NCBI GenBank assembly: GCA_963840035.1
Contig: CAWIXE010000002.1
Span: forward strand, 992,099 to 1,056,098
Source of the DNA: a candidate division FCPU426 bacterium
GTDB lineage: Bacteria; Oederibacteriota; PGYV01; Palsa-1178
Direction of reading: 5' to 3'
DNA: 64,000 nucleotides
Shown here: one piece after another, positions 1,554-32,652 of the stretch
How positions within the stretch are numbered: the first letter of the stretch is position 1
Layout of the letters: each line of letters opens with the position of its first letter
The notes under the pieces: generated by a model
What the model was told of the DNA's origin: nothing
The model's database searches: none
Seen by the model: only the letters and a program-made list of their open reading frames with translations
Translations under genes and position numbers: made by a program

Positions 1554-2474
1554 TTAGTTCATTAAAAACTTCAGCGAATAACTGCCTGCGCTGCCTTTAA
1601 AATTAAATGAGGGGATTTTCGAATCAAGCCAGGCTTCAACACCTGTCTTTTTCCTCTCGGCGATAACAAAAGGCCTGCCTTTTATCCCGGCCATTTCAGC
1701 CGCGCCTTCTATGGCGTCGTCTATGGAACCTATCTCGTCTACAAGGCCGAGTTCTTTGGCTTCCCTGCCCGTAAAGACCCTGCCGTCAGCAATGTTCTTA
1801 AGCATATATTCTTTTATTAATGCCCTTCTTTTTTTCTCATTTTTCTCTTTTATTTTGAAAGCGGCCGCGAGTTTCTCGTCCCTGCCGATTATGACGTCAT
1901 CCACAAACTGGTTTAAAACATCCGTAATAAGCCTCTGCATTATGGCCCTGTCTTCCTCAGTCACAGGCCGTGAAAAAGAACCGGTATCCTTGTATTTTCC
2001 GCTCTTTATAGTGGTGAAATTAACGCCTACTTTTCCCATGAGTTTTTCAGCGTTCATGAAACTCATTATGACGCCGATTGAGCCGGTCAGCGTGCCCGGG
2101 TTTGCGTATATCTTATCAGCGGCTGAAGCCAGGTAATAAGCGCCTGAAGCGCCAAGCTCGCCCATGGATACTATTATTTTTTTGCCTGAAGCTTTCACCT
2201 TATTAATCTGCCTGTAAACTTCCTGAGAAGCCGCAACACCGCCGCCAGGGCTGTCCACGCGAAGGACAATGGCCTTTACAGAGGCGTTATCCTCATATGT
2301 TTTAAGGAGTTCAAGGATGTGGGTAGTGTCGATTATTTCACCGTAAATATTGATAAGAGCCACCTTTTTAACAAGAACCGGCGCGGAAGAAGCGCCCGCG
2401 TAATCAACAGCCTTGCCAATAACCAAAAGAACAAGAATAACCGCGCATATTATTAAAATAACACGTTTTTGCAC
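1554..2474 (-). CDS. sppA: signal peptide peptidase SppA (36K type)
   Basis: N-terminal membrane anchor, 'VLRVDSPGGGVAASQEVYRQI' and 'GELGASGAYYLASAADKIYANPGTLTGSIGV' SppA/ClpP-fold motifs. Confidence 0.9.
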   Translation of the reverse strand: MQKRVILIICAVILVLLVIGKAVDYAGASSAPVLVKKVALINIYGEIIDTTHILELLKTYEDNASVKAIVLRVDSPGGGVAASQEVYRQINKVKASGKKIIVSMGELGASGAYYLASAADKIYANPGTLTGSIGVIMSFMNAEKLMGKVGVNFTTIKSGKYKDTGSFSRPVTEEDRAIMQRLITDVLNQFVDDVIIGRDEKLAAAFKIKEKNEKKRRALIKEYMLKNIADGRVFTGREAKELGLVDEIGSIDDAIEGAAEMAGIKGRPFVIAERKKTGVEAWLDSKIPSFNFKGSAGSYSLKFLMN

Positions 2475-2622
2475 TATAAAACTCCTTATATTAAATGATA
2501 AATATAAAAATATGCTATATTTTAATAGTTTTTTGGGTTTAAGTCAAGAATAATAAAGAAAAAGCAATGGGCTATGAACTAAAGCTATGTGTACTGTTAA
2601 CATGTTCTATTTAAAGTCTATG

Positions 2623-2780
2623 TTTGTCATTGCGAGGAGGCGTTTTTGTAATTTGCCGACGAAGTCCTTCGACTTCGCTCAGGACCATGAGCCTGTCGAA
2701 TGGCAATCCCGCTGTTCCAGAAGGAGAAAACGCGATTGCTTCGTCGCCATAAGTCAACTACGGTTCCTCGCAATGACAAA
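2623..2780. repeat. ~158-bp palindromic MITE/REP-like intergenic element, copy 1
   Basis: Terminal inverted repeats 'tttgtcattgcgagga' / 'tcctcgcaatgacaaa'; internal core 'aagtccttcgacttcgctcaggaccatgagcctgtcgaatggcaatc' identical to copy at 18519..18668. Confidence 0.75.
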
Positions 2781-2869
2781 CTGTAAACATATTTTTTTAA
2801 TATTATAAGTATACGCCATGAATAAAAAATCATTGTATTAACTAATTGCTCATAGCTTATCGCTTAATA

Positions 2870-4726
2870 CTAAAAAGGAATTACCCCGCCCACCAGCAAC
2901 TGTATATTCCCCGCCGACATTGAATCCACTCCGTCAGGAAGCGGGCTGCTCATTATGGATGTGTAGCCAATGAGCCCGTCCAGCTGGATTTTTCCCATGG
3001 CATATCCCGCGCCAAGCGTTATTGTAAGGTCGTTTTGGTTGGGATTATCAGCGGTGCCCGGCGCCGGGCCGCTTACTCCTCCGGCTTTGGTTTTTTCAGA
3101 GGTTGTTGAAAAAGATAAACCGGCCCTTAACGCAAGCTCCCTGGAGAGCTTGTATTCACAACCGGCAGACGCTTTAATTGTGGATTTATCGTCAGTTGAC
3201 TCGCCTCCGGTGTACTTCGCCCCCTGTCCGTTATTTTCAAATTTAAATTCAACGGGTATGAGCAGTGATTCTGAAAGGTTCATCGTCGTGCCGGCTGCTA
3301 TGCCGAGATAGCCAAGCGATATTGTTGTGGGATCCGTATCGGTTGAACTGCTGAAATATTTATACCCCGCGCCTCCTAACTGCACGCCGAGGCCCAGCGT
3401 AAATATTCCGAACCTGTAACGTCCCTTAACTCCGAAGTTCATAAGGGATCCGTCCTTTGCCGGGCTGTATGCAGGCAAATCAGTCGTTGTTGACGCTCCG
3501 GTGCTTATTGTCGTTACAGTCCGTTTGGATGTTGACTTTCCGCCAATCCCGGCTGTCATGCCGAACCCCGCGAGCAATTCAAGATTATCCTTTTCATAAG
3601 CGCCGGCAAGCGATACATTAACTCCTGATGCGGCAATATCCGTGACTGTCGCCACATGAAATCCCATCATCTCATATGTGTCTGTAACTTTAATATTCCG
3701 CAGGTCTATATATGTCTGCGCGCTGTTTACCGAAGGCGCGCTGTATAATGTCATGGAAGCTCCCGGCCATGGCGCGAGCGAGCTTTTATCCGAAACCATC
3801 AATCCTGCCGTAACTTTTCCTGCCGACGCGGCTAATTCAGGGACATATGAGGCTGAAAGCCCCCACTCAATCTGGCTTGTCTCTGTTTTTGTGAGCGCGC
3901 CAAAAGCCAGGTCGCCAATTTCGTCAAACCATCCTCCGTTATAGCCGGCATATACGCCGGCTGAAAATCCGCGGAAGATCAGTCTTGAGTACTCAACCTG
4001 AGTCATAAGCACATTCGCAGGCGCCTTGACTTCCGTTGAGAATCCGCCGCCGGACATTTTTGTGGCAAGCCCTACGTTCATATAGAATAATTTCAGGTTA
4101 AGGACATCACTGTTTGTCAGCCAGTACGTGACAGCGCTATAATTCCTTACCGGATCGGCCGACAGCGGGAATCCGCCGCCGCCCAATTCAAATGTGGAGT
4201 CAATAGGGGGTGATGACACGGACTTTGACCAGGCGCTGAAATAACCTGTTATTGCAGAGGCCAGGTTCTTTCTCGGCCTTAAAACAAGGCCCGAAGCGAA
4301 TCCGGTACCGCCGTACATGTCAAAAGCCGACGACGCGTCGCGCAGTGTAAGCTCAGGGGCGCCCAGCGCAGCCATCCTGCTGTAACTGCCGTTGTAATAA
4401 TAAGCGCCGCCGCCTGCCGCGCCGCGGGGTTTTAAGGAATCAATGTATTTCTTAAGAGCCGGTGATTTTTTTATTTCATATGATTTTTCCAGGTATTGCG
4501 CCGCGCCTGCCCTGTCCTTCATGGCCAGCCTGCAGTACCCCATATACATAAAAGCCGCAGCGTTTTTGGGGTTTAAAGACGCAGCGCCTTCAAAAGCCGT
4601 AAAAGCGGCTGAATACTTCTTTTGGGCATATAGCTTCGAGCCATTTTCCATATAGGTTTTTTCAGAAATACCGAACAACGAAATCGAAAACATGAACAGA
4701 ATGATTATAATTGCGTTTTTTTTCAT
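2870..4726 (-). CDS. secreted TPR-containing protein with C-terminal beta-rich (outer-membrane-like) region
   Basis: Signal peptide (MKKNAIIIILFMFSISLFG), TPR-like N-terminal segment, Gly/Ser/Thr-rich alternating C-terminal region ending in aromatic residue. Confidence 0.5.
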   Translation of the reverse strand: MKKNAIIIILFMFSISLFGISEKTYMENGSKLYAQKKYSAAFTAFEGAASLNPKNAAAFMYMGYCRLAMKDRAGAAQYLEKSYEIKKSPALKKYIDSLKPRGAAGGGAYYYNGSYSRMAALGAPELTLRDASSAFDMYGGTGFASGLVLRPRKNLASAITGYFSAWSKSVSSPPIDSTFELGGGGFPLSADPVRNYSAVTYWLTNSDVLNLKLFYMNVGLATKMSGGGFSTEVKAPANVLMTQVEYSRLIFRGFSAGVYAGYNGGWFDEIGDLAFGALTKTETSQIEWGLSASYVPELAASAGKVTAGLMVSDKSSLAPWPGASMTLYSAPSVNSAQTYIDLRNIKVTDTYEMMGFHVATVTDIAASGVNVSLAGAYEKDNLELLAGFGMTAGIGGKSTSKRTVTTISTGASTTTDLPAYSPAKDGSLMNFGVKGRYRFGIFTLGLGVQLGGAGYKYFSSSTDTDPTTISLGYLGIAAGTTMNLSESLLIPVEFKFENNGQGAKYTGGESTDDKSTIKASAGCEYKLSRELALRAGLSFSTTSEKTKAGGVSGPAPGTADNPNQNDLTITLGAGYAMGKIQLDGLIGYTSIMSSPLPDGVDSMSAGNIQLLVGGVIPF

Positions 4727-4782
4727 ATAAACACCTCTCCCTTTTTTTATATATTAACATGAAAAACGGGGGGTGTAAAGAC

Positions 4783-4856
4783 CATTGACAATTGTTGATT
4801 GACGATTGACAATTAATTACTACAACAATCAAAAAAGCAATTGTCAATTGTCAATT
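4783..4856. promoter_or_regulatory. cluster of ATTGACAATT direct and inverted repeats (candidate operator/hairpin) between PilZ gene stop and TPR-protein gene start
   Basis: 'cattgacaattg', 'gattgacgattgacaatt' and inverted 'caattgtcaattgtcaatt' within 75 bp. Confidence 0.35.
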
Positions 4857-5264
4857 ACTTTCTGGATTTAACAAATAATTCCACACCGACTCAAACTGGT
4901 TCTTGAAATATGCCTCCATGTAACGCCTTTCTTCTTCAGTCATTGCCGCGAATTCGAGGCCTATGCTGTACTGCATGCTTTCTTCGCCAAGGAATATGTG
5001 CCCGTTCCACACTACCTCGCAAACCGCGTGTATTTCCTTTCCGTCAAGGATAAAATCCACCCTTAATATGTCGCCGGGCTGGAACTTGTCATAGGTAAGG
5101 ATGCCTATGCCGCCTTCCGAGATATCATGGCCTTTGGCTTTTACAAACTGTTCATGTTCGACCGCTTCAGCGCCCATCCTTAAGATTTTGTATTTAACAT
5201 CCCTGTTCATCGGAAGCCTTTGCGCCTTTCTTCTCTCTTTTAACATAAGGTCCATAGAATCCAC
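4851..5264 (-). CDS. PilZ domain protein (c-di-GMP receptor-like)
   Basis: 'RRKAQR' (RxxxR) and 'DISEGGIGI' (DxSxxG) PilZ signature motifs. Confidence 0.7.
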   Translation of the reverse strand: MDSMDLMLKERRKAQRLPMNRDVKYKILRMGAEAVEHEQFVKAKGHDISEGGIGILTYDKFQPGDILRVDFILDGKEIHAVCEVVWNGHIFLGEESMQYSIGLEFAAMTEEERRYMEAYFKNQFESVWNYLLNPESN

Positions 5265-5271
5265 CTCCCTG

Positions 5272-7197
5272 CTATTTTAGGATTACCATCTTTTTTGTTA
5301 TCGTTTTACCCTGCGCCGATACCTTTATCAGGTACACGCCGCTTGCGGCTTTCATTCCGCGCTCATTGTCAAGGTTCCATACAACTTCGTTAATCCCCGG
5401 CCGGGTGGCCGCGGCTGTAAGGGTTTTAGCCCAGACCGGCTTATTATTGATATCGGTAATCAACATACCCGCCTCACAGCTTTCCTTTAGGGGGAACCTT
5501 ATCGTTGTAAAATCCCGGCACGGGTTTGGATAGTTATAAGTCTCTGCCGGGTCAAGGGTCTCATAACGAGATTCAACAACTATTGGCGCCGGATTTTTAT
5601 CCGCAAGGACAAAAACCCTAGCGCATTTCTTGCGGGTGTCAATGGCATACTCAACGCCGCATTTCCCGCAGTAAATAATGACACCTTCCGGGAAACCCCT
5701 GGTTAAGAACAACCTGAATAAATTGTCGGCAATTACGCCAAAGTTGGACTTATTGCATCCTTTTTCAGCCATATTGAATTCGCATGATTTTATGGCATGG
5801 CCCTTTGACGGCAGTTCTATATAAATCTTTTCAAGCTTTGTAAAATGGTCATGGGACATCCTGAACCTGAAAACATGCATGCATTTAACTGCTGTCGTTG
5901 CCGGAGTTATTTCGGTTGTGGGCACTTGTGTAGGCATCACGGTTGCCGTCTCTTTAATTATTACAACCACTGTCGCTGTTTCAGTTGGTGTTTGTGTAAA
6001 TGTTTCTGTATCAACAGGCGTTTCAGTAAACGTTTCAGTATTGGTTGGCGTTTCAGTAAACGTTTCAGTATTGGTTGGCGTTTCAGTAAACGTTTCAGTA
6101 TTGGTTGGCGTTTCAGTGAAGATTTCAGTATTGGTTTGTGTTTCAGTGAAAGTCTCAGTATCAGCAGGAGTCTCCGTGAACGTCTCCGTGGCTGTAAATG
6201 TTTCCACAGGCAGCTGCGTCGGTTCTTCAATACGCAGTTCAAAAACAGCTACGCCTTCAGGATAGTTAAACTGCCCCGGCAACGGGCCCTTTACAGCCCC
6301 GAAACTCTTTTCAAACAGTCCATCGGAATTAAATTTCTGTACCCTGTTATTGCCGGCGTCAGCCACATATACATAACCCTCTGAATCCACTGATATGCCG
6401 TATATGTCGCCAAACTGCCCCGCAGCCGCGCCTTTGCTTCCCCATTTTAATTCAAACGCGCCCTCGCGCGAGAACCTCTGCACCCTGTAATTATTCGCGT
6501 CAGCCACATATACCCTGCCGCTGCTGTCGATTGCGGCGGCGCGCGGGTAATTGAACTTGCCTTCCGCCGACCCTATTCCGCCGATTATCTGAAGCGCGTT
6601 GCCGAACGCGTCAAGTTTTTTAACCCTGTTATTTAAAGTATCACATACATATATCAGTCCTGTAACGGTGTCAACTGCCACACCCTGGGGGTTATTGTAG
6701 TCCATGATACCGCTGCCGGCCTTTGTTGAGCCAAAAGTCATAGCCCATGTACCGTCAGCGTTTAAGACCTGTATTCTGTTGTTTCCGGTGTCAGCCACTA
6801 CCACGCGTTCAAGCCCGTCAGTGACTATAACTGCAATGCTGTTCGGGCTGGAAAAACCGCCATTAAGCTTGCTGCTTGCCGGCCCGCCCCAGGTCCCGCG
6901 CCAGTTTCCTGAAGTGTCAAATACCTGCAGCCTGTTATTACCCGTATCAGCTACATATATAAGGCCGCTTGCCATTCCTGCCGCAATGGAACCCGGATAA
7001 CTAAACTGGCTTACCCCGCTGCCTTTTGAGCCCCATGACATAATAACATTGCCGTCAAAATCCATTGATTGGATCCTGTAATTTGAGGTATCAGAGATGA
7101 ATATCGAGCGGATTGTCTGGGCTTGTGTATTATTTGCCAGGAGTAAAAGTACTGTAAGGCTGGTCAGCGTTTGTAGGAGTGATTTTTCTGTTTTCAT
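5272..7197 (-). CDS. secreted NHL-repeat protein with Thr-rich tandem-repeat linker and T9SS-type (Por/FlgD-Ig-like) C-terminal domain
   Basis: Start set at MKTEKS (RBS AAGGAGGTG upstream); repeated 'YVADTGNNRLQVF'-type NHL blades; 'TNTETFTETP' repeats; C-terminus 'NYPNPCRDFTTIRF...GVYLIKV...KKMVILK'. Confidence 0.7.
   Translation of the reverse strand: MKTEKSLLQTLTSLTVLLLLANNTQAQTIRSIFISDTSNYRIQSMDFDGNVIMSWGSKGSGVSQFSYPGSIAAGMASGLIYVADTGNNRLQVFDTSGNWRGTWGGPASSKLNGGFSSPNSIAVIVTDGLERVVVADTGNNRIQVLNADGTWAMTFGSTKAGSGIMDYNNPQGVAVDTVTGLIYVCDTLNNRVKKLDAFGNALQIIGGIGSAEGKFNYPRAAAIDSSGRVYVADANNYRVQRFSREGAFELKWGSKGAAAGQFGDIYGISVDSEGYVYVADAGNNRVQKFNSDGLFEKSFGAVKGPLPGQFNYPEGVAVFELRIEEPTQLPVETFTATETFTETPADTETFTETQTNTEIFTETPTNTETFTETPTNTETFTETPTNTETFTETPVDTETFTQTPTETATVVVIIKETATVMPTQVPTTEITPATTAVKCMHVFRFRMSHDHFTKLEKIYIELPSKGHAIKSCEFNMAEKGCNKSNFGVIADNLFRLFLTRGFPEGVIIYCGKCGVEYAIDTRKKCARVFVLADKNPAPIVVESRYETLDPAETYNYPNPCRDFTTIRFPLKESCEAGMLITDINNKPVWAKTLTAAATRPGINEVVWNLDNERGMKAASGVYLIKVSAQGKTITKKMVILK
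6021..6140. repeat. 30-bp in-frame tandem repeat, 3 perfect + 1 degenerate copies, inside NHL-protein gene
   Basis: Unit 'tttcagtaaacgtttcagtattggttggcg' at 6021, 6051, 6081; degenerate copies flank. Confidence 0.85.
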
Positions 7198-7373
7198 GTC
7201 GCTCACCTCCTTCGCAGTTCCCCTCTCATTTGTAATATAGCTCACAAATGATTTTTTGTCAAGTATTATGTTAAGTATATTGTTAGTATTTAACTAAAGT
7301 GCACGAAAACGCCACTAAAATATGGTGAATTTTTGAAATATCGAATATTGTGTTTTTTGATTTTTTGCGTTTT

Positions 7374-9512
7374 TTAAAAATTATAGGTTAATGATATTCC
7401 CACATTTTCCATATCCAGCATGGGCGCAAACCCTATCTTATTTTCCTTTGCTATTCTTTCGCTTCTGTTGGTATAAACCGCGTTGTAAACCGCGGTATAG
7501 CCGGGCGCGGAAGCCACATCAGCAAGATATGAAATTCCAAATAAAGCAATACCCGCATAGCGCATAAAATCCTGCGTCGTATTCCCTGTTTTTGTCCCCG
7601 GGTTGGCGAGGTATAACACCGCGCCAAGCGCTTCAACGCCTGCCAGAGTAAACGCCGTTGAATAATTTTCCGCGTAAAAATTACCCGCGCCATGCGCGAG
7701 CAGTCCGGGGCCGGCCGCTATTAAAAACGCGATGCCCGGTTCCTTTTCATCTTTCTTTTCCGTTACCTTATACGGGCTGTTCGGGCAAAGAAGCTGTTTG
7801 TAATATTCCGAATTGACATTATCGGTATGCAGCAGCGAGCCATAAAGGTCTATGCACCTCATGACGGTGTAAACGCCGATTGCGGAATACATAAAACCCT
7901 GCGCGATCTTTTTATTATCATCGCCGGCTTTTCCGTTATAAATCATTCCCACCCCGTATGTAATGCCCGTTAAAATCGGCGTGGCAATAAGCAGCTTAAG
8001 CGCTGTCTCGTTATCGCCCGCCCACCAGTGCCCTGCTCCGGGAATAATTCCGGCGGTAAGCGAGAATACGGAAGTAAGGGCCGGGTCTTTGTATTCCACC
8101 CTTTCCTTTTCAACTTTAAGCTCCATCGTTTTTATCTTATTAAGGTACAGCTCCGCGTTCTCGGTTGCCACAAAAGGAGCCGTGACATAATCAGTCAAAA
8201 GCCCCGCCGCCATCATGCCGGCTCCTGCTGACATAAGCGCGTAATCGGATTTTTCCGTATTTTCAAATTTACCGTTGATTATGGCGCCGGCCGTGATAAG
8301 CATGCCGCCCACTATGGTAAGCGACGAAGACGCGGGCGTCCATGTCTGCAGCCTGCTCCGCGAATAGAAATTACCGAACCCGGCGTAAAGCAGGTTTATG
8401 GGAAAAAGGTCTATGTACGAAAACATATGGGCCGAGAAAGGCGATTTAAACTCCTCATCAACATTCCTCCCCGCGTAAATCTTGTCCATACCCGCCGCGT
8501 GCGACGCCTCAAGTTTTGTGAGGTATGACGCGGTGGAAACATCGCCCGGATTATAAGACAGGTATTTTTTATAGAAAACTATTGCCTGCTCTTTATTGCC
8601 GAAAGAAACATAACAGTTGCCGAGGCGCTGATACGCCTGGTATATGCCCGCGTTGAGTTTTACAACCTCGGAATAGGCGTAGAATGCCTGCTTGTAGTTG
8701 CGCTGAGATTCCAGGGCCAGCCCTTTTTTATAATACTCCTGCGCCTTTGCCTTATTATCGTCAACCGGCGCTATTTTACCCGCTTCTTCAGCCAGTTTTT
8801 TATTTTGTTCTTCAAGTTTTTTCGCGTTTTCCTGCTGTTTTTTCTCGCTCTCGCGCTGCTGCTCTTCAAGCTGTTTCTGAGCGTCCTTCTGCTGCTGTTC
8901 ATACTGGCGCTGCTGTTCCTCGGTGCGTTTCTTCGCGTCCTGCTGCTGTTGTTCATACTGACGCTTCTGTTCCTCAGTACGGTTTTTGGCGTCCTGTTGC
9001 TGCTGTTCGTACTGGCGTTTCTGTTCTTCAGTACGGTTCTTCGCGTCTTTCTGCTGCTGTTCATACTGCCGTTGCTGCTCTTCAGTTCGTTTTTTTGCGT
9101 CCTGTACCTGCTGTTCATTCTTTCGTTTCTGTTCTTCAGCCTGTTTCTTAGCTTCATTTAAGCGCTCTTCATAGCGTTTCTGGCTGTCATCAGCCGCCAT
9201 TTTTGAGTCTTTATTCTTCTGTTCGACAGCCTTTAACTGTTCTTCCTTTTTTGCCTTCAGCGCTTCCTGATTCTTTTTATAGGCTTCCTGCCTTGCTTTA
9301 TAATCAGCAAGCTTCTTATTATAAGCCTGCTGTGTAGCCTGCGCCACTGCCGCCTTTATCTTAGAAACTACAGGCTTTACAGTTTTGACTGGAACCGCTT
9401 TAACCGCAGGTTTAACCGTAGGTATTGCCGTAGGCTTAACCGTAGAAGCAGCCGCTCCAAAGAGCATATTTGCCGAAGCCAAAAGCACAATTAGCAGTAT
9501 ATATTTTCTCAT
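7374..9512 (-). CDS. secreted coiled-coil repeat / TPR protein with C-terminal putative beta-barrel-like domain
   Basis: Signal peptide; 18-aa Q/E/K-rich repeats (DAKNRTEEQKRQYEQQQQ); TPR-like segment; C-terminus ends '...ISLTYNF'. Confidence 0.5.
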   Translation of the reverse strand: MRKYILLIVLLASANMLFGAAASTVKPTAIPTVKPAVKAVPVKTVKPVVSKIKAAVAQATQQAYNKKLADYKARQEAYKKNQEALKAKKEEQLKAVEQKNKDSKMAADDSQKRYEERLNEAKKQAEEQKRKNEQQVQDAKKRTEEQQRQYEQQQKDAKNRTEEQKRQYEQQQQDAKNRTEEQKRQYEQQQQDAKKRTEEQQRQYEQQQKDAQKQLEEQQRESEKKQQENAKKLEEQNKKLAEEAGKIAPVDDNKAKAQEYYKKGLALESQRNYKQAFYAYSEVVKLNAGIYQAYQRLGNCYVSFGNKEQAIVFYKKYLSYNPGDVSTASYLTKLEASHAAGMDKIYAGRNVDEEFKSPFSAHMFSYIDLFPINLLYAGFGNFYSRSRLQTWTPASSSLTIVGGMLITAGAIINGKFENTEKSDYALMSAGAGMMAAGLLTDYVTAPFVATENAELYLNKIKTMELKVEKERVEYKDPALTSVFSLTAGIIPGAGHWWAGDNETALKLLIATPILTGITYGVGMIYNGKAGDDNKKIAQGFMYSAIGVYTVMRCIDLYGSLLHTDNVNSEYYKQLLCPNSPYKVTEKKDEKEPGIAFLIAAGPGLLAHGAGNFYAENYSTAFTLAGVEALGAVLYLANPGTKTGNTTQDFMRYAGIALFGISYLADVASAPGYTAVYNAVYTNRSERIAKENKIGFAPMLDMENVGISLTYNF
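8881..9100. repeat. 54-bp in-frame tandem repeats (about 4 copies) encoding 18-aa coiled-coil units
   Basis: Units beginning 'gcgtcct(t/g)ctgctg...ttcatactg...' recur every 54 bp. Confidence 0.75.
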
Positions 9513-9513
9513 A

Positions 9514-10152
9514 TCAGAACCTCCACGAAAGGCGTGCGGGTATGTAATTAAGCGCCCACGCCGAAGGCCCTAAAGGGATGTACCACAACTTAACCACCTG
9601 TCTAAGGTCTGTGGCTTCAGTAAACATCACCGAGAAAGCGGTTGATAAAACCAGGTTGTCGGTAAGGTTAGCTGAAACTCCTACTTCCACAGAGGGAGAA
9701 AAGAAAGATGAAGAGGTGGTTTCAAGCACCGAGTGTATCTCCCCTGTCTCATTCCTCATAGGATAGGAGGCATTGCCGGAATTAAGTTTTTGTCTTGAGA
9801 CAAAGGAAAAAGAAGGCAGCAGGTTGATAAAGAGGCTGTATCTTTCATCAATTGCGGAAGTCCTGGCCCCGAGGATTACGGCTATATTGGTTATCGCGTC
9901 ATTATATACCGTGTCAGAAAGCGTTGCGGAATCATTATAAAGCATGGGTATGTAAGTAAGCCTGCCGCCGATATAGAAGTTATTAGTGGCGTTGTAAACG
10001 CACTGCCCTTCATATACGGGAAGGTTAATAGCCGCCGAAATAGCGTACCCAATCCCGGCCTCAACGCCGTTATCAAAACTCTTCATTTTAAAAGCCGATA
10101 TAACCGGCACAAACAGCGCCACCAAAACAATCGCTCCAATAAGTCTCTTCAT
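9514..10152 (-). CDS. outer-membrane beta-barrel-type protein
   Basis: Start set at MMKRLIGAIVLVALF signal peptide; alternating hydrophobic pattern, C-terminal '...ARLSWRF'. Confidence 0.5.
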   Translation of the reverse strand: MKRLIGAIVLVALFVPVISAFKMKSFDNGVEAGIGYAISAAINLPVYEGQCVYNATNNFYIGGRLTYIPMLYNDSATLSDTVYNDAITNIAVILGARTSAIDERYSLFINLLPSFSFVSRQKLNSGNASYPMRNETGEIHSVLETTSSSFFSPSVEVGVSANLTDNLVLSTAFSVMFTEATDLRQVVKLWYIPLGPSAWALNYIPARLSWRF

Positions 10153-10331
10153 CATTTCTCCTTTTTCCCCAATAAAACAATTATATTTTATCACGTCTTA
10201 CATATATTAGTCAATTTTTAACCAAATTAGTTCCGTTTAAAAGCCCAATCGTAAATCAACAACAAACAACTTCGCAGCACTTATGCTTTTCCATTATATG
10301 CCCGCACAAGCAACAAAATAGTCAGGTTTTC

Positions 10332-10395
10332 GTAGAGACACAGCTTGCTGTGTCTCGCCTTTCAACGTCTGAGACGCAGCAAGCTGCGTCTCTAC
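10332..10395. repeat. 64-bp GTAGAGA...TCTCTAC double-hairpin repeat, copy A
   Basis: 'gtagagacacagcttgctgtgtctcgcctttcaacgtctgagacgcagcaagctgcgtctctac'; two adjacent perfect hairpins; ~97% identical to copy B. Confidence 0.8.
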
Positions 10396-10450
10396 AAAAA
10401 TCCGACTCATCAAGTAGTTCTTAGAATTGCCGTATTACATTTAAAAGCAA

Positions 10451-11104
10451 TTAAAAACTTGTTATGCAACGGGCTGTTTTCATAGGCGTTTTCTTTAACA
10501 TCGTTTTATATTTACCATATGTCCGCCATGTTAAAAAACCCATAAAACGCAAATAATAGATTTCGCATGCCTTCAAAAACGAAAATTTTTGCACCTTATT
10601 CTTATCTGAAACCGTCATTAGCCCGACCATATTCTTTCCTATGCTTGGTTTACCCTGATATAAAAACAGCGCAAAGTATGCGATAAACATTATGAACGCT
10701 ATTATCAGATTTACAGCCATTACGAGGTCGCTTATCACAACATAGCCCCGGATAAAGCCCCACTTAAATTCGCCCGTTCTTAAGTATTCCACACTCAGCG
10801 TAACACAGCTTGTTATCGCGCCGATTGGAATCATCAAAAAAAATGCGTCTATAATAAATGCTGCAGACTTACGTATCCATGACGGCTTTGCGTTAATTAT
10901 CTTAACTTTAAAATCAATGCGCTGAAAAAAATATATGAATACAAGATAAAAAACTGCCACCAGCACGCTTTTCAGTGATGAAACGGCATATACTTTTGTA
11001 GCGCCATTGCTTGATTGTATGGATGTGGCTGAACCAGGATTTAAGAAAATAAGAGCCAAAAATATAACAGTAATTATTTTATCCCAGTTTTTAATTTTAA
11101 CCAC
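10451..11104 (-). CDS. RDD family membrane protein
   Basis: Polytopic membrane protein with 'QGKPSIGKNMVGLMTV' resembling the RDD-domain G-x-[ST]-x-GK...G motif. Confidence 0.5.
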   Translation of the reverse strand: MVKIKNWDKIITVIFLALIFLNPGSATSIQSSNGATKVYAVSSLKSVLVAVFYLVFIYFFQRIDFKVKIINAKPSWIRKSAAFIIDAFFLMIPIGAITSCVTLSVEYLRTGEFKWGFIRGYVVISDLVMAVNLIIAFIMFIAYFALFLYQGKPSIGKNMVGLMTVSDKNKVQKFSFLKACEIYYLRFMGFLTWRTYGKYKTMLKKTPMKTARCITSF

Positions 11105-11147
11105 ATCGCCTTCCTATTCATCTTTGTATTATAAGAATCACAAACCT

Positions 11148-11211
11148 GTAGAGACACAGCTTGCTGTGTCTCGCCCTTCAACGTCTGAGACGCAGCAAGC
11201 CGCGTCTCTAC
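11148..11211. repeat. 64-bp GTAGAGA...TCTCTAC double-hairpin repeat, copy B
   Basis: Same sequence as 10332..10395 with 2 substitutions; lies between uvrA stop and RDD gene start. Confidence 0.8.
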
Positions 11212-11226
11212 AAAAAACAGAACAGG

Positions 11227-14049
11227 TCAGCACTTCGTCCTGCCCATGTGCTTGCACAGGTACTGCCCTGTATAGGAATTCTTCACCTTCATTATTTCTT
11301 CCGGCGAACCTACAGCTACCACATTTCCGCCTTTATCCCCGCCTTCAGGGCCTATGTCTATGATATAGTCGGAGTTTTTAACAACATCAAGGTTGTGTTC
11401 TATTACCACAACCGTATTTCCCAGCTCAACCAGCCTGTTTAATACCGTCAGCAGTTTTTCAATATCCGCGAAATGCAGCCCTGTTGTGGGCTCGTCAAGT
11501 ATGTAAAAGGTGGAGCCTGTGGAGCGCTTGCAGAGCTCTTCGGCGAGCTTTACCCTCTGCGCTTCGCCGCCGGAGAGGGTTGTCGCCTGCTGTCCCATTG
11601 TTATATAGCCAAGCCCCACTTCATCAAGCGTTTCAAGGACAGTTTTTATCTTGGGTACGTTGGCGAAGAACTTTAACGCGTCCTCCACCCTCATATTCAG
11701 GACATCTGATATTGATTTATCCTTATAAAGTATCTCCAGGGTCTCCCTGTTATATCTCTTACCACCGCACTCCTCGCACGGCACATATACATCCGGCAAA
11801 AAGTGCATTTCTATCTTGATAATGCCGTCTCCGCCGCATACTTCGCACCTGCCGCCCTTGACATTAAAACTGAAACGCCCCGGTTCGTATCCGCGCAGTT
11901 TTGCTTCCTTGGTATTCGCGAAGATGTCCCTTATCTCGGTAAAAACACCCGTATATGTGGCCGGGTTTGAGCGCGGCGTCCTTCCTATGGGAGACTGGTC
12001 TATCTCTATGACTTTGTCCACCTGCTGCCAGCCAATCATTTCCTTATAACCCGAGGGCCTTAAACCGCCCCTGTAAACCTCATACATGAGAGCCGGGAAA
12101 AGAGTCTCCGCAATCAGCGATGATTTGCCCGAGCCTGATACGCCCGTGATGCATATGAAATTACCCAGCGGGAACCTGACATTTATGTCCTTTAAGTTAT
12201 TCGTTGTGGCGCCGCGGAGCTCTATGTACTTTTCCGCGCTTCTTTTTGATGTCTTTGGTATGGTTATCTTTGTCTTGTTATTTAAATATTTCGCCGTAAG
12301 TGATGTCTTGTGTTTTAAAATATCCTCCAGCGTCCCTGCCACAACAATTTCGCCGCCATGAACGCCCGGCCCGGGGCCCATGTCTATAACAAAATCGGCC
12401 TTGACTATTGTTTCCTCGTCATGTTCGACGACTATGACTGTATTCCCGAGGTCCCTCAGCTTTTTCAGGGTGCCAAGGAGTTTTTCGTTGTCGCGCTGGT
12501 GAAGCCCTATGGAGGGTTCGTCAAGGATATAAAGCACGCCCATTAACCCCACGCCTATCTGGGTGGCAAGGTGTATCCTCTGGAATTCGCCGCCGGAGAG
12601 CGTGCCTGATTTGCGGTCCAGGGTCAGGTACGCAAGGCCGACGTTTAAGAGGAACTGCAGCCTTCCTTTTATCTCCTTGAGGATCTGCTTTGATATAAGC
12701 TCGTCCTTTTTTGAAAGTTCAATCGAATTAAAATAAGCGTAGGCCTTTTCAATGGACATGGAAGATGCTTCAACAATGGTCTTCCCGCCCACGCGCACAT
12801 TCGCGGCCTCGGGCTTTAGCCTTTTGCCGCCGCATGTCCGGCATTCCTTTTCCATCATGTATTTCTGAAATATGTCGTCGCGTATCCTCTCGGTATCAGT
12901 ATCCTTATAGCGCCTTTCCAGGAACGGTATGAGCCCTTCAAACCCGCCTGTGTGCTTCCAGTCGGACGTATAACTTTTGTATTTATATTTGATGTTCTCG
13001 TCGGAACCGTATAAAATTATCTTCCTTATCTTATCCGGTAGTTTTTTAAATGGTATGCTAAGGCTGAATTTAAAATGCTCGGCTATGCCTGAAACCAGGT
13101 GCCAGTAATACCCGTCCCTGTTGCCCCACGGTTTTAAAGCCCCGTCCTGTATGGACAGTTCCTCGTTTACCACAAGCTTTTCATCCACTTCCACCCTGCT
13201 GCCTATTCCCATGCATTCCGGGCACGCGCCAAACGGGCTGTTAAACGAGAACAGCCTGGGCTCAAGCTTCTGCATTGAGAAGCCGCACTTCGAGCATGAG
13301 AGCTTTTCGGAGAAAAGCGTGTCTGTGTTTTTTTCCGAATCATTTATGATGGCAATACCCTCGCCTATTTTTACGGCGAGCTCCACAGACTGGGTTATCC
13401 TTTTCTTTTCCGCCGCGGACACGGCTATCCTGTCGACCACTATTTCCACGCTGTGTTTTTTGTTCTTTTCAATGGTTATCTTGTCTTCCACGGATTTCAC
13501 AACGCCGTCCACACGGACCCTTAAAAAGCCTTCTTTCTTAATATTCTCAAACATTTTGGAGTACTCGCCTTTTCTTCCCGAGATTACCGGGGCGAGTATG
13601 AGTATCTTCGTGCCTTCCTTCATTTCCAGCACCCGGTCAGTTATCTGCTGGACGCTTACCGACTTTATCTGGGTTCCGTCATTGGGGCAGTATGGCACGC
13701 CGATCCTGGCCCAGAGCAGCCTGAAGTAATCGTAAATCTCGGTAATGGTCCCTACTGTGGACCTCGGGTTTGACCCGGCGCTTTTCTGCTCTATGGCGAT
13801 TGCCGGCGATAGACCTTCTATGGTATCAACATCAGGCTTCTGCATCTGCCCGAGGAACTGCCTGGCGTACGCTGAAAGCGATTCCACGTAGCGCCTCTGG
13901 CCTTCCGCGTATATGGTGTCAAACGCCAGCGAAGACTTGCCGGAGCCCGATACCCCCGTTATGACAACGAGCTTGTCGCGGGGTATGCTGATATCTATAT
14001 TCTTGAGATTGTGTTCCCTTGCGCCTTTGATTGTTATGAATGATGCCAC
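11227..14049 (-). CDS. uvrA: excinuclease ABC subunit A
   Basis: 940 aa; '[57 protein letters not shown]'; duplicated ABC ATPase modules and zinc-finger cysteines. Confidence 0.95.
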
Positions 14050-14059
14050 TTTACACCTG

Positions 14060-14764
14060 TTATTGTAGCAGCCCTTGCGGATTGCTTATTTTCTTCTCAC
14101 TTAACATGAAAAGAATTCTGTCGTACGCGTACTTTTTTGTTTCCTTATCCTTTGTGTTCTTATAGACCCAGGCCCAGTACTTTGCCGCCTCATCAGGGGT
14201 TTTGGAGACTTCATATATGTTTCCCAGCAGCCTTTCAATTATTGCGGGATGGTCGTTAAACTTCAGCGCGTCCTCCAGCAGGCTTATGTATTTAAGGGTA
14301 TCCCCCTGCTTGCTGTACATGATGGCCGCCATGTAATACCTGAGTTTCCAGAACTGCGGGTTATAACGCAGCCCCTTTTGTATCACGGCAATTGCCTCGT
14401 CATATTTTTTAAGGTTAAACGCGAGTATGGCTCCGCCGTAAGTGTAAGCGAAGGTAAAGTGCGGGTCAGCGTCAGTCATGTTGTCAATATACGTGTAGAG
14501 TTTGGTCCACCTGCCGGTCATATTGGACCTGTCGCCGTAATACTGCAGGAAGGATATGTATTCAAAATCCGCCAGCAGCGCCCTGTATCCGAAGGAAACG
14601 CCCATGATATGGTCAAACTTCTTATACGAATGCGGTGTCAGAAAATACCAGTCAGGCTGTGTGGCGAAAAGCATTTTTGCGGCGCCGGAGCTGAAAAAAC
14701 ACATTCCAGCCGCCATGATAACAGCCGATACGGCAAGCACGGACTTCCTGGCAAAAGATCCCAT
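14060..14764 (-). CDS. hypothetical protein with N-terminal signal/anchor and TPR-like helical repeats, co-operonic with ABC transporter
   Basis: Start set at [20 protein letters not shown] (the ORF-track N-terminus overlaps the permease gene). Confidence 0.45.
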
Positions 14765-14765
14765 T

Positions 14766-15539
14766 TTAGAATTCCTTTTTTTCAAATATAAACGAAGCAG
14801 CCATGAGCGTGATGGCCGCATACAGCACAGCGTAACCCAGCACAAACCCCAGATAATTGATGTTAAAGATCCCTTCGGGCGAGGATATTTTATCCTTAAG
14901 GTTAAAAAGCTCCATGTTTGGCACTATGTAATAAACCGCGTCAACCGCTGTTTTTACGACCATATCCGAACCCGCCTTTACAAGGTTCTTTAAATGTATG
15001 GTCAGGTGGCCCAGCGCGTAGAGGAACACGAGGTAAATAACGCATGTCGGGACAGACGTCGTAATCACGGAAAGAAGCAGCGCGGTCGAGGCGATAGTGG
15101 CCACGCCCATGAAGGAATAAAACGCCGACACAATTAACCGCAGGTCCCACGGGTCCCCGCCTTTAATCGAAATGATCACCATAAGCACGATGAGCATCAT
15201 CAGCACATTAATAAAAAGGGTCGCGGCGATGCCTAGATATTTGCCCACTATGTATTCATGGCGCCTGATCGGCTTGACCATAATCATGGATATGGTCTTT
15301 AACTCTGTCTCCTCGAACATCTGGATGGTGATGGAAAGCGCCAATGTGAGGAACGCGAATATCGATATGGCAAAAAGTCCGAAATCCAGCACCATCTTCA
15401 TCTCAGATTCCTGGGCAAGCGCCGATATGGCAAGAGAAAAGCCTATGGCAAAGACCGCGAATATGACAAGAATATTCAGCATCTTGTTCCTGAAGCTCTG
15501 CTTGAAGATGTATTCCGCCACAGCGAGAATCCGCCTCAT
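14766..15539 (-). CDS. ABC-2 family transporter permease
   Basis: 257 aa, 6 predicted TM helices, typical ABC-2 permease size and topology; 4-nt overlap with upstream ATPase gene. Confidence 0.7.
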   Translation of the reverse strand: MRRILAVAEYIFKQSFRNKMLNILVIFAVFAIGFSLAISALAQESEMKMVLDFGLFAISIFAFLTLALSITIQMFEETELKTISMIMVKPIRRHEYIVGKYLGIAATLFINVLMMLIVLMVIISIKGGDPWDLRLIVSAFYSFMGVATIASTALLLSVITTSVPTCVIYLVFLYALGHLTIHLKNLVKAGSDMVVKTAVDAVYYIVPNMELFNLKDKISSPEGIFNINYLGFVLGYAVLYAAITLMAASFIFEKKEF

Positions 15540-16285
15540 TTTTCCACCCCCGCGGTCACTTTTTTAACGAAGTAATTTTCCATGGATTTATATTTCTTCA
15601 TTATGGGTTTCAACGGGCTGACGTCCACAAGCACGCCCTTATTAAGCACCGCCACCCTGTTGCATATCTTTTCCACTTCGCTTAATATGTGCGTGTTAAA
15701 GAATATGGTCTTTCCCCTTGCGTGCAGGGCGAGTATTATGTCCCTGGTCTCCTTGTATCCGAGCGGGTCCAGCCCTGACATGGGCTCGTCCAAAAATAAA
15801 AGGTCCGGGTCGTTTATAATAGCCTGCGCCAGGCCGAGCCTTCCCTGCATGCCCTTGGAAAGCCCCTTAACCATGGTATTCGCCTTATCTTTTAACCTCA
15901 CGGTATCAAGGACATCATCTATTTTCTTATTCACAGTATCAGCGGGTATGCCAAGTACCGCGGCAAAATATTCAAGGACTTCCCTGACTTTTAAATATTT
16001 AGGAAAATAAGGCAGTTCAGAGAGATACCCTATGCGCGCACGCACGCTTATATCGTCTACGGATTTGCCGAATATTTTTATGCTGCCCGAAGTCGGTTTC
16101 AAAAGCCCTAAAAGGACTTTCATAAGCGTTGTCTTACCCGCGCCATTTAACCCAAGAAGCCCGAATATCTCGCCTTTGTATACGGTAAGATTAACATCTG
16201 AGATGGCTGTAGTCCTGTCCTTCTTCCAGAAATCAAGCGCTTTGTAAATCTTTGTCGCGTTTTTTATCTCTACAACAGGTTCCAT
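15536..16285 (-). CDS. ABC transporter ATP-binding protein
   Basis: Walker A 'GLNGAGKTT', signature 'LSKGMQGRLGLAQA', Walker B 'LLFLDEP'. Confidence 0.9.
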   Translation of the reverse strand: MEPVVEIKNATKIYKALDFWKKDRTTAISDVNLTVYKGEIFGLLGLNGAGKTTLMKVLLGLLKPTSGSIKIFGKSVDDISVRARIGYLSELPYFPKYLKVREVLEYFAAVLGIPADTVNKKIDDVLDTVRLKDKANTMVKGLSKGMQGRLGLAQAIINDPDLLFLDEPMSGLDPLGYKETRDIILALHARGKTIFFNTHILSEVEKICNRVAVLNKGVLVDVSPLKPIMKKYKSMENYFVKKVTAGVEK

Positions 16286-16301
16286 AATACCTCCATGAAT
16301 C

Positions 16302-16392
16302 AGCTTAAAACTGAAAGCTTAAAACTGAAAATTGAGTCAAAACCGGACTTGAAATATTATTTCATTTTCAGTTTTCAGCTTTAAACTTTAAA
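16302..16392. repeat. simple-sequence imperfect inverted repeat at operon junction
   Basis: 'agcttaaaactgaaagcttaaaactgaaaattga' vs downstream 'ttcattttcagttttcagctttaaactttaaa'. Confidence 0.6.
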
Positions 16393-16398
16393 TTTGTC

Positions 16399-17211
16399 TT
16401 ACGACCCTATATGTATCGGGTCGACTATCTTCTTAATCAGCACTATGACCGACAGCGCCGTTATATAACTGGTTTTAGGGTTGCGCGGCGACGGAAGATT
16501 CTCCGATATGACCCTGAAACGGCCGAACTCGCCTTCGACTATTATTTCGTGCATATTTGAATTAATGAAAGGGTCTATGACTATCTTTACTTTTGTCCTA
16601 TCCGGCCCAATTCCTGCGATGCTTAACGTGGCTGCCACGTTCACGTTTGCCGGGAAATGCACCACTGCTTCCCTTGCTGACCCGTCGAACACGACAGTTT
16701 CCGTGGTAATAGCATCAAGGTTAATCTTCATCTTTTCAAGGTATTCGTTTCCCTTAAACGCCTGCGGCGGTTTGCGGGTAATAAGCGTGACTGAAGTCAG
16801 TCCGCTGAGTTTGGCCGCGTCAAGTCCGTCAATCCCCACCACGGCGCCGGACGGGACATAAATATTTATCTTCTGTTTCCTTGCCTCCTCCACGAGGTCC
16901 ATGCAGTCGAGCACTCCTCCGGCAGAGAGGAACATGATGTCCCTTTTATGCTTTATCGCCAGCTCAAAAAAGCCCCTTACGGCGGATTTAACCGCGCATT
17001 CCACAACCAGGTCGCAGGACTTTATGAGGTCTTCGACATCCATGAATATCGGTTTTACGCTTTTATACTTTGCGGAAAGCGCGTCAAACTTTGACTTGTC
17101 CTTGTCATAGCAGGCGTGCAAAGTAACATTTATGTCCCCTTTGTCAATGGCCATGGCTATTTCGCTTCCGATGTTACCGCACCCAATTACCCCGAGTTTT
17201 TTCGTGTCCAT
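16399..17211 (-). CDS. nadX: L-aspartate dehydrogenase
   Basis: 'GVIGCGNIGSEIA' Rossmann motif and C-terminal '...ENLPSPRNPKTSYITALSVI...' resembling Thermotoga NadX. Confidence 0.75.
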   Translation of the reverse strand: MDTKKLGVIGCGNIGSEIAMAIDKGDINVTLHACYDKDKSKFDALSAKYKSVKPIFMDVEDLIKSCDLVVECAVKSAVRGFFELAIKHKRDIMFLSAGGVLDCMDLVEEARKQKINIYVPSGAVVGIDGLDAAKLSGLTSVTLITRKPPQAFKGNEYLEKMKINLDAITTETVVFDGSAREAVVHFPANVNVAATLSIAGIGPDRTKVKIVIDPFINSNMHEIIVEGEFGRFRVISENLPSPRNPKTSYITALSVIVLIKKIVDPIHIGS

Positions 17212-17220
17212 TTTTTCCCT

Positions 17221-17580
17221 CTACTTTATCCTGTTATTTTTATCCACTTTCACGATGCGCGGTTTAAAGGCCGACCTTTGCCCCGCCTCGACCAATCCGT
17301 ATGACACAATGATAATGACGTCATTTTTTTCGGCGAGCCTGGCGGCCGCGCCGTTTATGCATATCTGCCCCGAACCTTTTTTTCCTTTTATGACATATGT
17401 CTCAAACCGGTTCCCGTTATTGATATTAAGGACATGCACTTTCTCATTTTCAAAAATATCCGCCGCTTCCATGAGCTTCTCGTCTATGGTAATGGACCCC
17501 TCGTATTCAAGGTGTTTATCCGTCACACTCGCGCGGTGAATTTTTGATTTCAGCATTTCTACAAGCATTGGAACCTCCAT
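17221..17580 (-). CDS. panD: aspartate 1-decarboxylase
   Basis: '[25 protein letters not shown]' with Gly-Ser self-processing site. Confidence 0.9.
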
Positions 17581-17629
17581 AAGGGCGAATTTTCAATTTT
17601 AAATTTTATATTTTCAATTAACACCGGAA

Positions 17630-18481
17630 CTACCCAGCTTGAATTATCGTATTGTCAATCAACCTGGTTTTGCCCACATATATCGCTGCCGCGATTAAAG
17701 CGCTGCCGGTTATCTTTTCGAGCGGCTTTAATGTCTTAGCGTCGACTATCTCCACGTAATCTATCTCTATGTTTGATTCCTTTAGTTTCCTTCTTATTTC
17801 CTTCTTCAGCGTATCGCAGGACTTTTCCCCGAGTTCTATCATGCTTTCCGCCATCTGCAGCGACTTATAAAGCGCCGGCGCGGTATTGCGCTCCTCAGGC
17901 GTTAAGTACATGTTCCTGGAGCTCAGCGCGAGGCCGTCCTTTTCCCTGAAAATCGGGCACACCACAACCTCGGTCTGATAGTTCAGGTCGGCGGCCATCT
18001 TTGTCAGCACTACGGACTGCTGCGCGTCTTTCTGGCCCAGGTAAAGCCTGTCGGGTTTTACTATATTAAGGAGCTTAGTCACTATGGTAGTAACGCCCTT
18101 AAAATGTTCGGGCCTTGTAATGCCGCAAAGGCATTTTGTCATTTCATTTTCGAGCGCCACGTACGTGGCGTACCCTTCCGGGTACATCATGGCGTTGTCC
18201 GGCGTAAACACGCAGTCAACTTTTTTCGACGCCTTTAGCATTTTCAGGTCCTTCTTAATGGGCCTGGGATACTTTTCAAAATCCTCGCCGGCCCCGAACT
18301 GTGAGGGATTCACATAAATGCTTACTATGACCTTTTCATTTTGCTTATCAGCTGCCTCAACAAGCGACATGTGCCCTTCATGAAGCGCGCCCATAGTCGG
18401 GACGAACCCGATGGTATGGCTGCGTTTCTTCAGCTTTGCCGTGTATTCATGCATTTCACTTAAAGTACCGATAATTTTCAT
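17630..18481 (-). CDS. panC: pantoate--beta-alanine ligase
   Basis: 'GFVPTMGALHEGHMSLV' HIGH-type motif, 283 aa. Confidence 0.9.
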   Translation of the reverse strand: MKIIGTLSEMHEYTAKLKKRSHTIGFVPTMGALHEGHMSLVEAADKQNEKVIVSIYVNPSQFGAGEDFEKYPRPIKKDLKMLKASKKVDCVFTPDNAMMYPEGYATYVALENEMTKCLCGITRPEHFKGVTTIVTKLLNIVKPDRLYLGQKDAQQSVVLTKMAADLNYQTEVVVCPIFREKDGLALSSRNMYLTPEERNTAPALYKSLQMAESMIELGEKSCDTLKKEIRRKLKESNIEIDYVEIVDAKTLKPLEKITGSALIAAAIYVGKTRLIDNTIIQAG

Positions 18482-22630: not shown

Positions 22631-22647
22631 GAAGACTCCTCAATGAT

Positions 22648-22764
22648 CGGGAATGGGGAATTGGGAATGGGGAATGGCAGACATAACATCCAGCCACAAA
22701 CCCAAAAACCAAATCCTTACGCCCTTTATTATTGCCATTCCCTATTGCCCATTCCCTATTCCCC
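22648..22764. repeat. simple-sequence imperfect inverted repeat filling the FAH-dapB intergenic region
   Basis: 'cgggaatggggaattgggaatggggaatggcag' vs 'ttgccattccctattgcccattccctattcccc'. Confidence 0.65.
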
Positions 22765-25370: not shown

Positions 25371-25382
25371 GAATTACTCCTT

Positions 25383-25466
25383 TGATATTTGATATGCGAT
25401 ATCGGATATTAGATATATATCCTTCTGCCTTCAACGTTTATATCTAATATCAAATATCCAATATCA
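25383..25466. repeat. simple-sequence imperfect inverted repeat between lysA and dapF
   Basis: 'gatatttgatatgcgatatcggatattagatata' vs 'tatatctaatatcaaatatccaatatc'. Confidence 0.65.
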
Positions 25467-31860: not shown

Positions 31861-31972
31861 ATATTTCCTCCTTTTTCCGGGCGTTCGCCCTGTGTTTTGT
31901 GCCTTCACTGAGGAAGACACCAACCCGGGAAAAAGGTTCCATAATAAAACGCATTATTTATAAGGCCATTTG

Positions 31973-31997
31973 TAGGGACAGCGCTCCCGCGCTGTCC
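31973..31997. repeat. GC-rich hairpin, inverted duplicate of hairpin at 32062..32083
   Basis: 'tagggacagcgctcccgcgctgtcc', palindromic stem 'ggacagcgc'/'gcgctgtcc'. Confidence 0.7.
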
Positions 31998-32045
31998 GCG
32001 CGGGGATTATGTTATGATTTTTAAACGTGGCTATAAATTCAGGTG

Positions 32046-32083
32046 AAAAAAAAACGCCGGCGGACAGCGCGGGAGCGCTGTCC
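32046..32083 (-). terminator. Rho-independent terminator immediately after 32084..32602 gene
   Basis: Minus strand reads 'ggacagcgctcccgcgctgtcc' followed by 'gccggcg' and U9. Confidence 0.65.
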
Positions 32084-32602
32084 CTACTCTGCGTACACCC
32101 ATTCAAAATCTCTTATTTTACTATTCCAATAAGCAATCGCGCTGTCAGCGTGAAACCGTTTAAACATGATTACCGGCGTTTTAAAAGTCCGGCCCTGCCA
32201 TGTCCCGGTGAAACTTTCCAGGCTGAGGTTATCCGGTAAGGATTTATACTTTCCCAGGAAATATTTCCTGTAATTGGAGCCTTCGCTGATCAAAGCGATA
32301 GCCTGAGCGGAAAAATTCACAACAACCCCGTTTTCCACCACATCCGACCTGACAATAAAGGCATAATCCTTTATGCCGTCAGAGTTAAAATCCGTGTTTA
32401 CATATCCCGGGCTTTTTAGTGTTATCTTGTGTTTCTTTAAAAAGGTTAAAAAATCATCGCTTAAATCCTTTACAGTCATTGTCCTTGCGTCAGGGCCGAA
32501 TGACATGAGCACGCTTTCAAAATTAAGGCCTTCAATTGGCCAGATCTGTGAAAAACAGAAAACAGGAAGTAATATTAAAACAAGTACAAAGATTTTTTTC
32601 AT
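32084..32602 (-). CDS. secreted hypothetical protein
   Basis: 172 aa, signal peptide MKKIFVLVLILLPVFCFSQ; no recognised motif. Confidence 0.5.
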   Translation of the reverse strand: MKKIFVLVLILLPVFCFSQIWPIEGLNFESVLMSFGPDARTMTVKDLSDDFLTFLKKHKITLKSPGYVNTDFNSDGIKDYAFIVRSDVVENGVVVNFSAQAIALISEGSNYRKYFLGKYKSLPDNLSLESFTGTWQGRTFKTPVIMFKRFHADSAIAYWNSKIRDFEWVYAE

Positions 32603-32624: not shown

Positions 32625-32652
32625 GTAGAGATGGGGTTAACCTCATCTCTAC
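32625..32652. repeat. GTAGAGA...TCTCTAC hairpin (12-bp stem, 'ttaa' loop)
   Basis: 'gtagagatggggttaacctcatctctac'; same terminal heptamers as the 64-bp repeat family. Confidence 0.6.

Follow-up and report, generated by a model that had tools for sequence, protein, structure and literature searches.

Two 64-nt direct repeats bracket a small membrane-protein gene in the analyzed window, a 64-kb stretch of DNA from an uncultured bacterial lineage. These repeats are very probably REPINs of a known RAYT-associated class, and the arrangement as a whole is probably one of REPINs occupying the two spacers round a recently acquired gene that they did not themselves deliver. The eye-catching 'cassette' would then represent a standard REP/REPIN arrangement and would extend a RAYT-associated, GTAG-tagged REP family to an uncultured lineage. 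REPINs, paired repetitive extragenic palindromes (REPs), are non-autonomous elements; their presumed mobilizer is a RAYT (REP-associated tyrosine transposase), an HUH/Y1 enzyme encoded once elsewhere in the genome that would cut and rejoin them as hairpins of single-stranded DNA. It was reportedly Bertels and Rainey who, in 2011, gave this name to head-to-head dimers of REPs.

Two REP dimers bracket a single gene

Copies A and B (Table 1) are direct repeats with a start-to-start spacing of 816 nt and agree at 62 of 64 positions (96.9%), as a sequence-only reading of this DNA had stated with its figure of about 97%. Both mismatches are T/C differences, one at spacer position 4 and one at 11201. 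The similarity reaches 74 nt (95%), about 10 nt beyond the 64-nt units, because an A-run common to both copies follows their terminal CTAC. Direct orientation and the 816-nt spacing would also be expected if the copies were remnants of a tandem segmental duplication with an interior that has since diverged or been replaced, but the similarity stops sharply at the REPIN and A-run and none is left in flanks or interior, which makes this origin hardly credible.

Each unit is composed of two 25-nt, GTAG-tagged palindromes, inverted with GTAG outermost and separated by a 14-nt spacer, in the layout GTAGAGACACAGC-TT-GCTGTGTCTC, spacer, GAGACGCAGC-AA-GCTGCGTCTCTAC. The REP stems are 10 bp long, and the two halves of a unit differ at one stem position in a compensatory manner, A:T versus G:C. 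All four REP units in the window start with the GTAG tag. Copies A and B have 13 of their 14 spacer bases in common, and the exact 14-nt spacer junction gave no match in JGI metagenomes. The 25-nt REP pattern, at up to three mismatches, produced seven overlapping matches in the window, all of them within copies A and B, against 0.00 expected by chance (100 dinucleotide shuffles).

Both copies are intergenic. Read along the minus strand, on which all neighboring genes lie, copy B lies 15 nt past the uvrA stop codon and ends 43 nt ahead of the 217-aa ORF, and copy A follows 55 nt past the stop of that ORF. Two short-read (Logan) contigs of this organism, which is also present in sample ERR11594406, break off right within the REPINs (L117 1–26 and L118 7442–7491), a weak indication of multi-copy status since copies A and B have no common 31-mer. 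Integron attC sites were considered as well, but the units are near-identical GTAG palindromes that on inspection show no RYYYAAC/GTTRRRY core.

Table 1 Features of the window and of the segment missing from its closest relative
Feature	Positions	Strand	Description
REPIN copy A	10332..10395	.	Head-to-head REP heterodimer
Copy A left REP	10332-10356	+	GTAGAGACACAGCTTGCTGTGTCTC
Copy A spacer	10357-10370		14 nt; GCCTTTCAACGTCT
Copy A right REP	10371-10395	-	GTAGAGACGCAGCTTGCTGCGTCTC
REPIN copy B	11148..11211	.	Oriented as copy A; spacer GCCCTTCAACGTCT
Putative RDD-family gene	10451..11104	-	Divergent 217-aa membrane protein; GTG start
uvrA	11227..14049	-	Last gene of conserved ABC-ABC2-TPR-uvrA block
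Segment missing from closest relative L119	7246..11226	-	3.98 kb, in hypervariable slot
Gene for 226-aa hypothetical protein	9514-10194		Within segment missing from L119
Gene for 712-aa TPR protein	7374-9512		Within segment missing from L119
REPIN of second family	31972..32087	.	Inverted copies of GTAGGGACAGCGCTCCCGCGCTGTCC; perfect 28-nt arms, GTAG outermost, 60-nt spacer
Gene for 172-aa protein	32084-32602	-	Bracketed by the REPIN above and the palindrome below
'Double-foot' GTAG...CTAC palindrome	32625..32652	.	GTAGAGATGGGGTTAACCTCATCTCTAC

Predicted folding and RNA-level role

The 64-mer reaches its lowest predicted energy as a single long hairpin (−23.8 kcal/mol as DNA, −43.0 kcal/mol as RNA; z about −7), and the two-hairpin form is less stable (−18.6 kcal/mol as DNA, −30.3 kcal/mol as RNA). 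Of the two perfect hairpins per unit proposed previously, two 10-bp hairpins can form, but the second one in copy B contains an A.C mismatch, as the single T>C change at 11201 in the right REP breaks the stem. The loops at the hairpin centers read TT and AA, in place of the TTG proposed for the first hairpin.

By analogy with known REP behavior, the units may have an RNA-level role in 3′-end protection. Minus-strand transcription would give the uvrA or RDD-gene mRNA a highly stable 3′-end hairpin (predicted −57.8 and −47.5 kcal/mol), and such a hairpin could shield the mRNA 3′ end or serve as a leaky barrier. With both units located just 3′ of minus-strand genes and these RNA hairpins so stable, one might take them for locally evolved, non-mobile terminators or protein-binding operators of uvrA and the RDD gene. 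However, no hairpin followed by a T-run was found on either strand between 9400 and 11400 (zero versus 2.2 expected); the tails after the hairpins are TACGAAAACC and TACAGGTTTG. Since they have no U-tract, the units are not canonical terminators, and the terminator function suggested by the sequence-only reading was not borne out in that sense. Rfam searches returned only sub-threshold, miRNA-like hairpin matches for the region and no family at gathering score in the whole window. The GTAG-tagged 25-mer, moreover, recurs at hundreds of unrelated loci and adjoins RAYT genes, as described below. We therefore regard a locally evolved terminator or operator as very improbable.

A dispersed family replicated as doublets

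In species-representative genomes, the 25-mer is present in at least 116 loci, assigned by record title to Acidobacteriota (~70), Chloroflexota (21), Bacteroidota (14), Spirochaetota (4) and others (7); the window's own species is absent among the loci listed. Many of these loci contain 'double-foot' GTAG...CTAC palindromes or inverted dimers, and 32 REP matches among them are exact copies of the window's right-hand 25-mer. One Acidobacteria MAG (QIBC01) carries the 25-mer on at least 14 separate contigs. An identical REP core of 25–28 nt (GTAGAGACGCAGC[AT]TGCTGCGTCTC) was seen in MAGs of at least eight labelled phyla (L001–L116), among them a Peribacteria (CPR) MAG and a Geobacter MAG. Such a multi-phylum core could reflect either sequence constraint or a RAYT system that spread horizontally.

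The A:T variant was detected in 79 metagenome loci, which contain 37 further head-to-head heterodimers (39 including the two of the window). In nearly all of the 37, one partner is an A:T-type REP and the other is of G:C or AGAGC type, with a spacer of 5–35 nt between them. BIME-like arrays with alternating REPs were seen in L127, L136, L146, L149, L151 and L160, and metagenome Ga0224525 alone provided 21 contigs with about 88 REP units, although densities of this kind are biased upward because the metagenome loci were chosen for containing a REP. The 447 REP units represent 94 distinct sequences, in which compensatory substitutions keep the stem: at pair 9–20, 51 of the distinct REPs have G:C and 24 have A:T, and other pairs covary too. 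Spacer subfamilies are common to separate contigs, for example an AAGC...TTAAAGGC type in L127, L129 and L151. Together with the nearly identical spacers of copies A and B, these subfamilies indicate that the replicated unit is the REP doublet rather than the single REP. The earlier designation as 'REP-type' is thus confirmed by the GTAG tag, the palindrome, the inverted dimer, multi-copy dispersal in relatives and the cognate RAYT genes reported in the following section.

RAYT genes associated with the REP family

The 64-kb window, part of a 1.7-Mb contig, encodes no Y1 transposase. All-versus-all clustering of ORFs near REPs revealed no recurrent transposase, and a strict HUH regular expression had no match. 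An HMM built from RAYT homologues (Y1 proteins) revealed small, REP-flanked RAYTs in metagenome contigs. Those of L136, L187 and L197 measure 169–175 aa, and REPs of the copy A/B family immediately adjoin their genes on both sides. In L136, a locus from the same metagenome as L146, a single A:T/G:C dimer encloses the RAYT gene, and a portion of the spacer recurs on each side of it. The RAYT gene of L187 has REPs on either side, and that of L197 lies between two direct REPINs. The three proteins scored 34.9–45.2 bits against Pfam Y1_Tnp (cutoff 23) and contain the motifs [DE]H[LIM]H, WQ and YIKNNP; a fourth RAYT-like protein, from L189, scored 22.2 bits against the same cutoff. On the NCBIfam model REP_Tyr_transpos, the small RAYTs reached 59–74 bits, under the equivalog cutoff of 80. 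By motifs, not by tree, they resemble RAYT/TnpA-REP subclass 2.4, which corresponds to Bertels group 4 (Quentin et al. 2018, PMC6006769). The RAYT-like gene of L189 (1895–2476) has an in-frame insertion (…MHCASTNCVSTTNCVST…) that looks like a translated REP, as in subclass 2.4.

A looser regular expression retrieved a 330-aa protein combining Y1_Tnp with a DnaA_C-like HTH, encoded in L195 (2088–3080) 38 nt upstream of a REPIN. This protein, which scored 85.7 bits on the NCBIfam RAYT model, belongs to subclass 2.1, for which no REPs have been reported (PMC6006769). Its 87% orthologue (L204–L209) is present as two tandem paralogues in a REP-free polymorphic-toxin locus (YD-shell, Ntox24, Imm53), and no homologue was located on the window's contig among the best 120 matches. 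On these three grounds, we rejected it as the cognate RAYT and judged its position beside a REPIN coincidental.

A divergent gene in a variable slot after uvrA

The gene enclosed by the two REPINs ranks last among the window's 58 ORFs in GC content (36.1%; z about −3.5) and joint last in GC3 (38.1%; z about −2.7). Its 217-aa product scored 22.4 bits against RDD (PF06271), under the Pfam cutoff of 24.1, but all 31 aligned homologues match RDD at E ≤ 0.01 (best 7.9e-15). D86 is fully conserved in the RDD-like alignment, and R78 and R79 are almost so. The ORF thus appears to be a real but divergent RDD-family gene, and the family named in the sequence-only reading holds through the homologues, not through the score of the protein itself. 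A full HMMER search recovered 136 remote homologues at up to about 37% identity; the nearest homologue is 30% identical, and the closest RDD homologue resides in an unrelated gene context without REPs. Among 5.8 billion proteins, a word-indexed search found only the protein itself and no second copy, hence no sign of the gene moving.

According to UvrA, the organism belongs to an uncultured clade, with the nearest labelled matches in Spirochaetia and Goldbacteria MAGs (71–77%) and other relatives at 81–88% (L210, 82%). The ABC-ABC2-TPR-uvrA block is kept in five relatives, each with a different sequel to uvrA: a 678-aa protein and PilZ in L119, a type I restriction-modification system in L120, FtsH in L123, a YgjP/SprT-like gene in L210 and a 176-aa ORF in L211. 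The RDD gene is absent after uvrA in all five. The segment that L119 lacks comprises both REPINs, the RDD-like gene between them and the genes for the 226-aa and 712-aa proteins. Across L119–L123 and L210–L212, the slot between uvrA and the S49 peptidase/tricorn-like genes (window 2391–11226) varies from about 1.1 to about 9 kb. In L120–L122, a complete type I restriction-modification system follows uvrA, and the 8 kb examined contain no gene for an S49 peptidase.

REP positions also vary within the clade. L146 (metagenome Ga0224525) is syntenic with window positions 13996–18325 at about 69% nucleotide identity. Both L146 and L210 contain the same A:T plus G:C REP dimers between a histidine-kinase gene and an ABC transporter, a spot at which the window has neither the histidine-kinase gene nor a REP. 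Conversely, neither of these two loci has a REP after uvrA. Other GTAG REP types were found near uvrA in L120 (GTAGGGGAGCCCCC...) and L211 (GTAGGGGCCGG...). From these comparisons, the REP family belongs to the window's clade and its positions are unconserved, which is the pattern expected of a mobile repeat. The histidine-kinase gene, of dCache-PAS type, is positioned between aspartate dehydrogenase and ABC-transporter genes in L119 (3460–5532), L210 (2267–4321) and L211 (2635–4641), and a BIME-like REP cluster accompanies it in L210 and L146. L120 and the window (16285–16400) are devoid of this gene; the window has an AAAACTGAAA inverted repeat there.

The sequence-only reading had held that a generic repeat, combined with conserved synteny of the RDD gene, would count against a cassette. 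The repeat proved to be a REP of generic, dispersed type, a point against any special cassette, but the synteny of the RDD gene is not conserved, as the five relatives show.

Origin of the bracket

Recently acquired DNA would offer free spacers to a dispersed repeat, and their occupation could create the bracket; short-range spread of a REPIN would be an alternative route to the same outcome. The repeats most likely did not deliver the RDD gene. Occupation of spacers is suggested by a second bracketed gene in the window, by the REPs that frequently occupy successive spacers in relatives and by homology that ends at the REPIN. In the second case, the 172-aa gene is flanked by a REPIN of another family on one side and a 'double-foot' palindrome on the other, so bracketing needs no identical repeats. 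The 172-aa protein has a signal-peptide-like N-terminus, and the GC content of its gene is rather low (40.5%). Further intergenic repeats of the window, at 22646–22763, 25381–25471 and 16305–16391, are long, imperfect inverted repeats that differ from each other in sequence. Their arms consist of 6–7-nt tandem-like words (GGGAATG..., GATATT..., AAAACTGAAA...), and similar low-complexity words adjoin REPs in the Bacteroidales loci L108 and L028.

We infer mobilization in the window's genome and independent insertion of the two REPINs. As counterpoints to independence, insertion in adjacent spacers and the same orientation would have a probability of just a few percent, assuming that some 57 spacers had been open to it on equal terms, and the RDD gene, absent from all relatives, is the strongest compositional outlier of the 58 ORFs. 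Foreign composition and absence from relatives also fit a joint arrival of gene and repeat. An intermediate, circular or single-stranded, with the RDD-like gene and one REPIN could have recombined, through homologous or RAYT-mediated recombination, with a resident REPIN after uvrA, and the gene would have ended up between two direct REPIN copies. Such a delivery would account for the near-identity of the direct copies and their private 14-nt spacer found nowhere else, and the L197 RAYT gene, itself bracketed by two direct REPINs, offers a parallel; yet relatives often have REPs in one spacer after another, and RAYT mobilization of cargo is undocumented in PMC6006769 and PMC3733652. The enclosed gene likewise points both ways: its low GC and GC3, its distance from the nearest homologue and its absence after uvrA in L119, L120, L123, L210 and L211 would suit an imported cassette, but the indel relative to L119 extends beyond it to three genes, its closest RDD homologue has no REPs nearby and a second copy is missing from the proteins searched. 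We consider delivery by a REPIN-carrying intermediate unlikely. That the direct REPIN pair marks a gene cassette, with the RDD-like gene captured via REPIN-REPIN recombination or RAYT action, is in our view quite improbable. The 'cassette or recombination site' of the earlier reading is therefore retained as a minority interpretation, favored by a foreign gene that relatives lack and weakened by the generic, dispersed nature of the repeat.

We prefer spacer occupation by REPINs round a recently acquired gene. Were the cassette interpretation true, REP-bracketed small AT-rich genes, of which the window has two, would represent a general REP/RAYT route for importing or shuffling cargo. If REP pairs round small genes of foreign composition are general, the question arises whether REPs merely colonize new DNA or help to import it.

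Comparison with known REP systems

GTAG-tagged REP head-to-head (HH) heterodimers were described by Di Nocera et al. 2013 (PMC3733652). The units of the window resemble them in the 5′ GTAG, the 25-nt palindrome with GTAG outside, the short conserved spacer, the differing stems of the two partners, the capacity to form two hairpins or one long stem-loop and the extragenic location. They differ in their spacer of only 14 nt and in their host. The GTAG repeats of that study were placed in Proteobacteria, Cyanobacteria, Chloroflexi and the PVC superphylum, whereas the window's lineage is uncultured and its nearest UvrA labels, Spirochaetia/Goldbacteria, lie outside those groups.

Features in common with RAYT subclass 2.4 are the WQ and YI[KQ]NNP motifs and the 169–193-aa length of the L136, L187, L197 and L189 proteins, the occurrence of long canonical and 'double-foot' GTAG...CTAC REPs scattered across phyla, and the L189 gene with its REP inserted in frame. 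The identical 25-nt core in MAGs of Acidobacteriota, Chloroflexota, Bacteroidota and Spirochaetota fits the scattered, partly horizontal distribution of this subclass. Regarding the HUH motif, however, the consensus of subclass 2.4 is NH[IFV]H (PMC6006769), with which only L189 (NHFH) agrees, three of the four RAYTs having [DE]H[LIM]H instead; and no RAYT was seen in the window itself.

Compared to the E. coli REP/BIME elements and their TnpA-REP (PDB 4ER8 system, PMC3479197, PMC8266576), the window shows simple dimers only and no BIME arrays, and both the REP sequence and the RAYT subclass are different. The two systems nevertheless share a recognition unit of GTAG plus hairpin, alternating-orientation arrays, which in our dataset are found in the relatives L127, L136, L146 and L160, and a position 3′ of genes.
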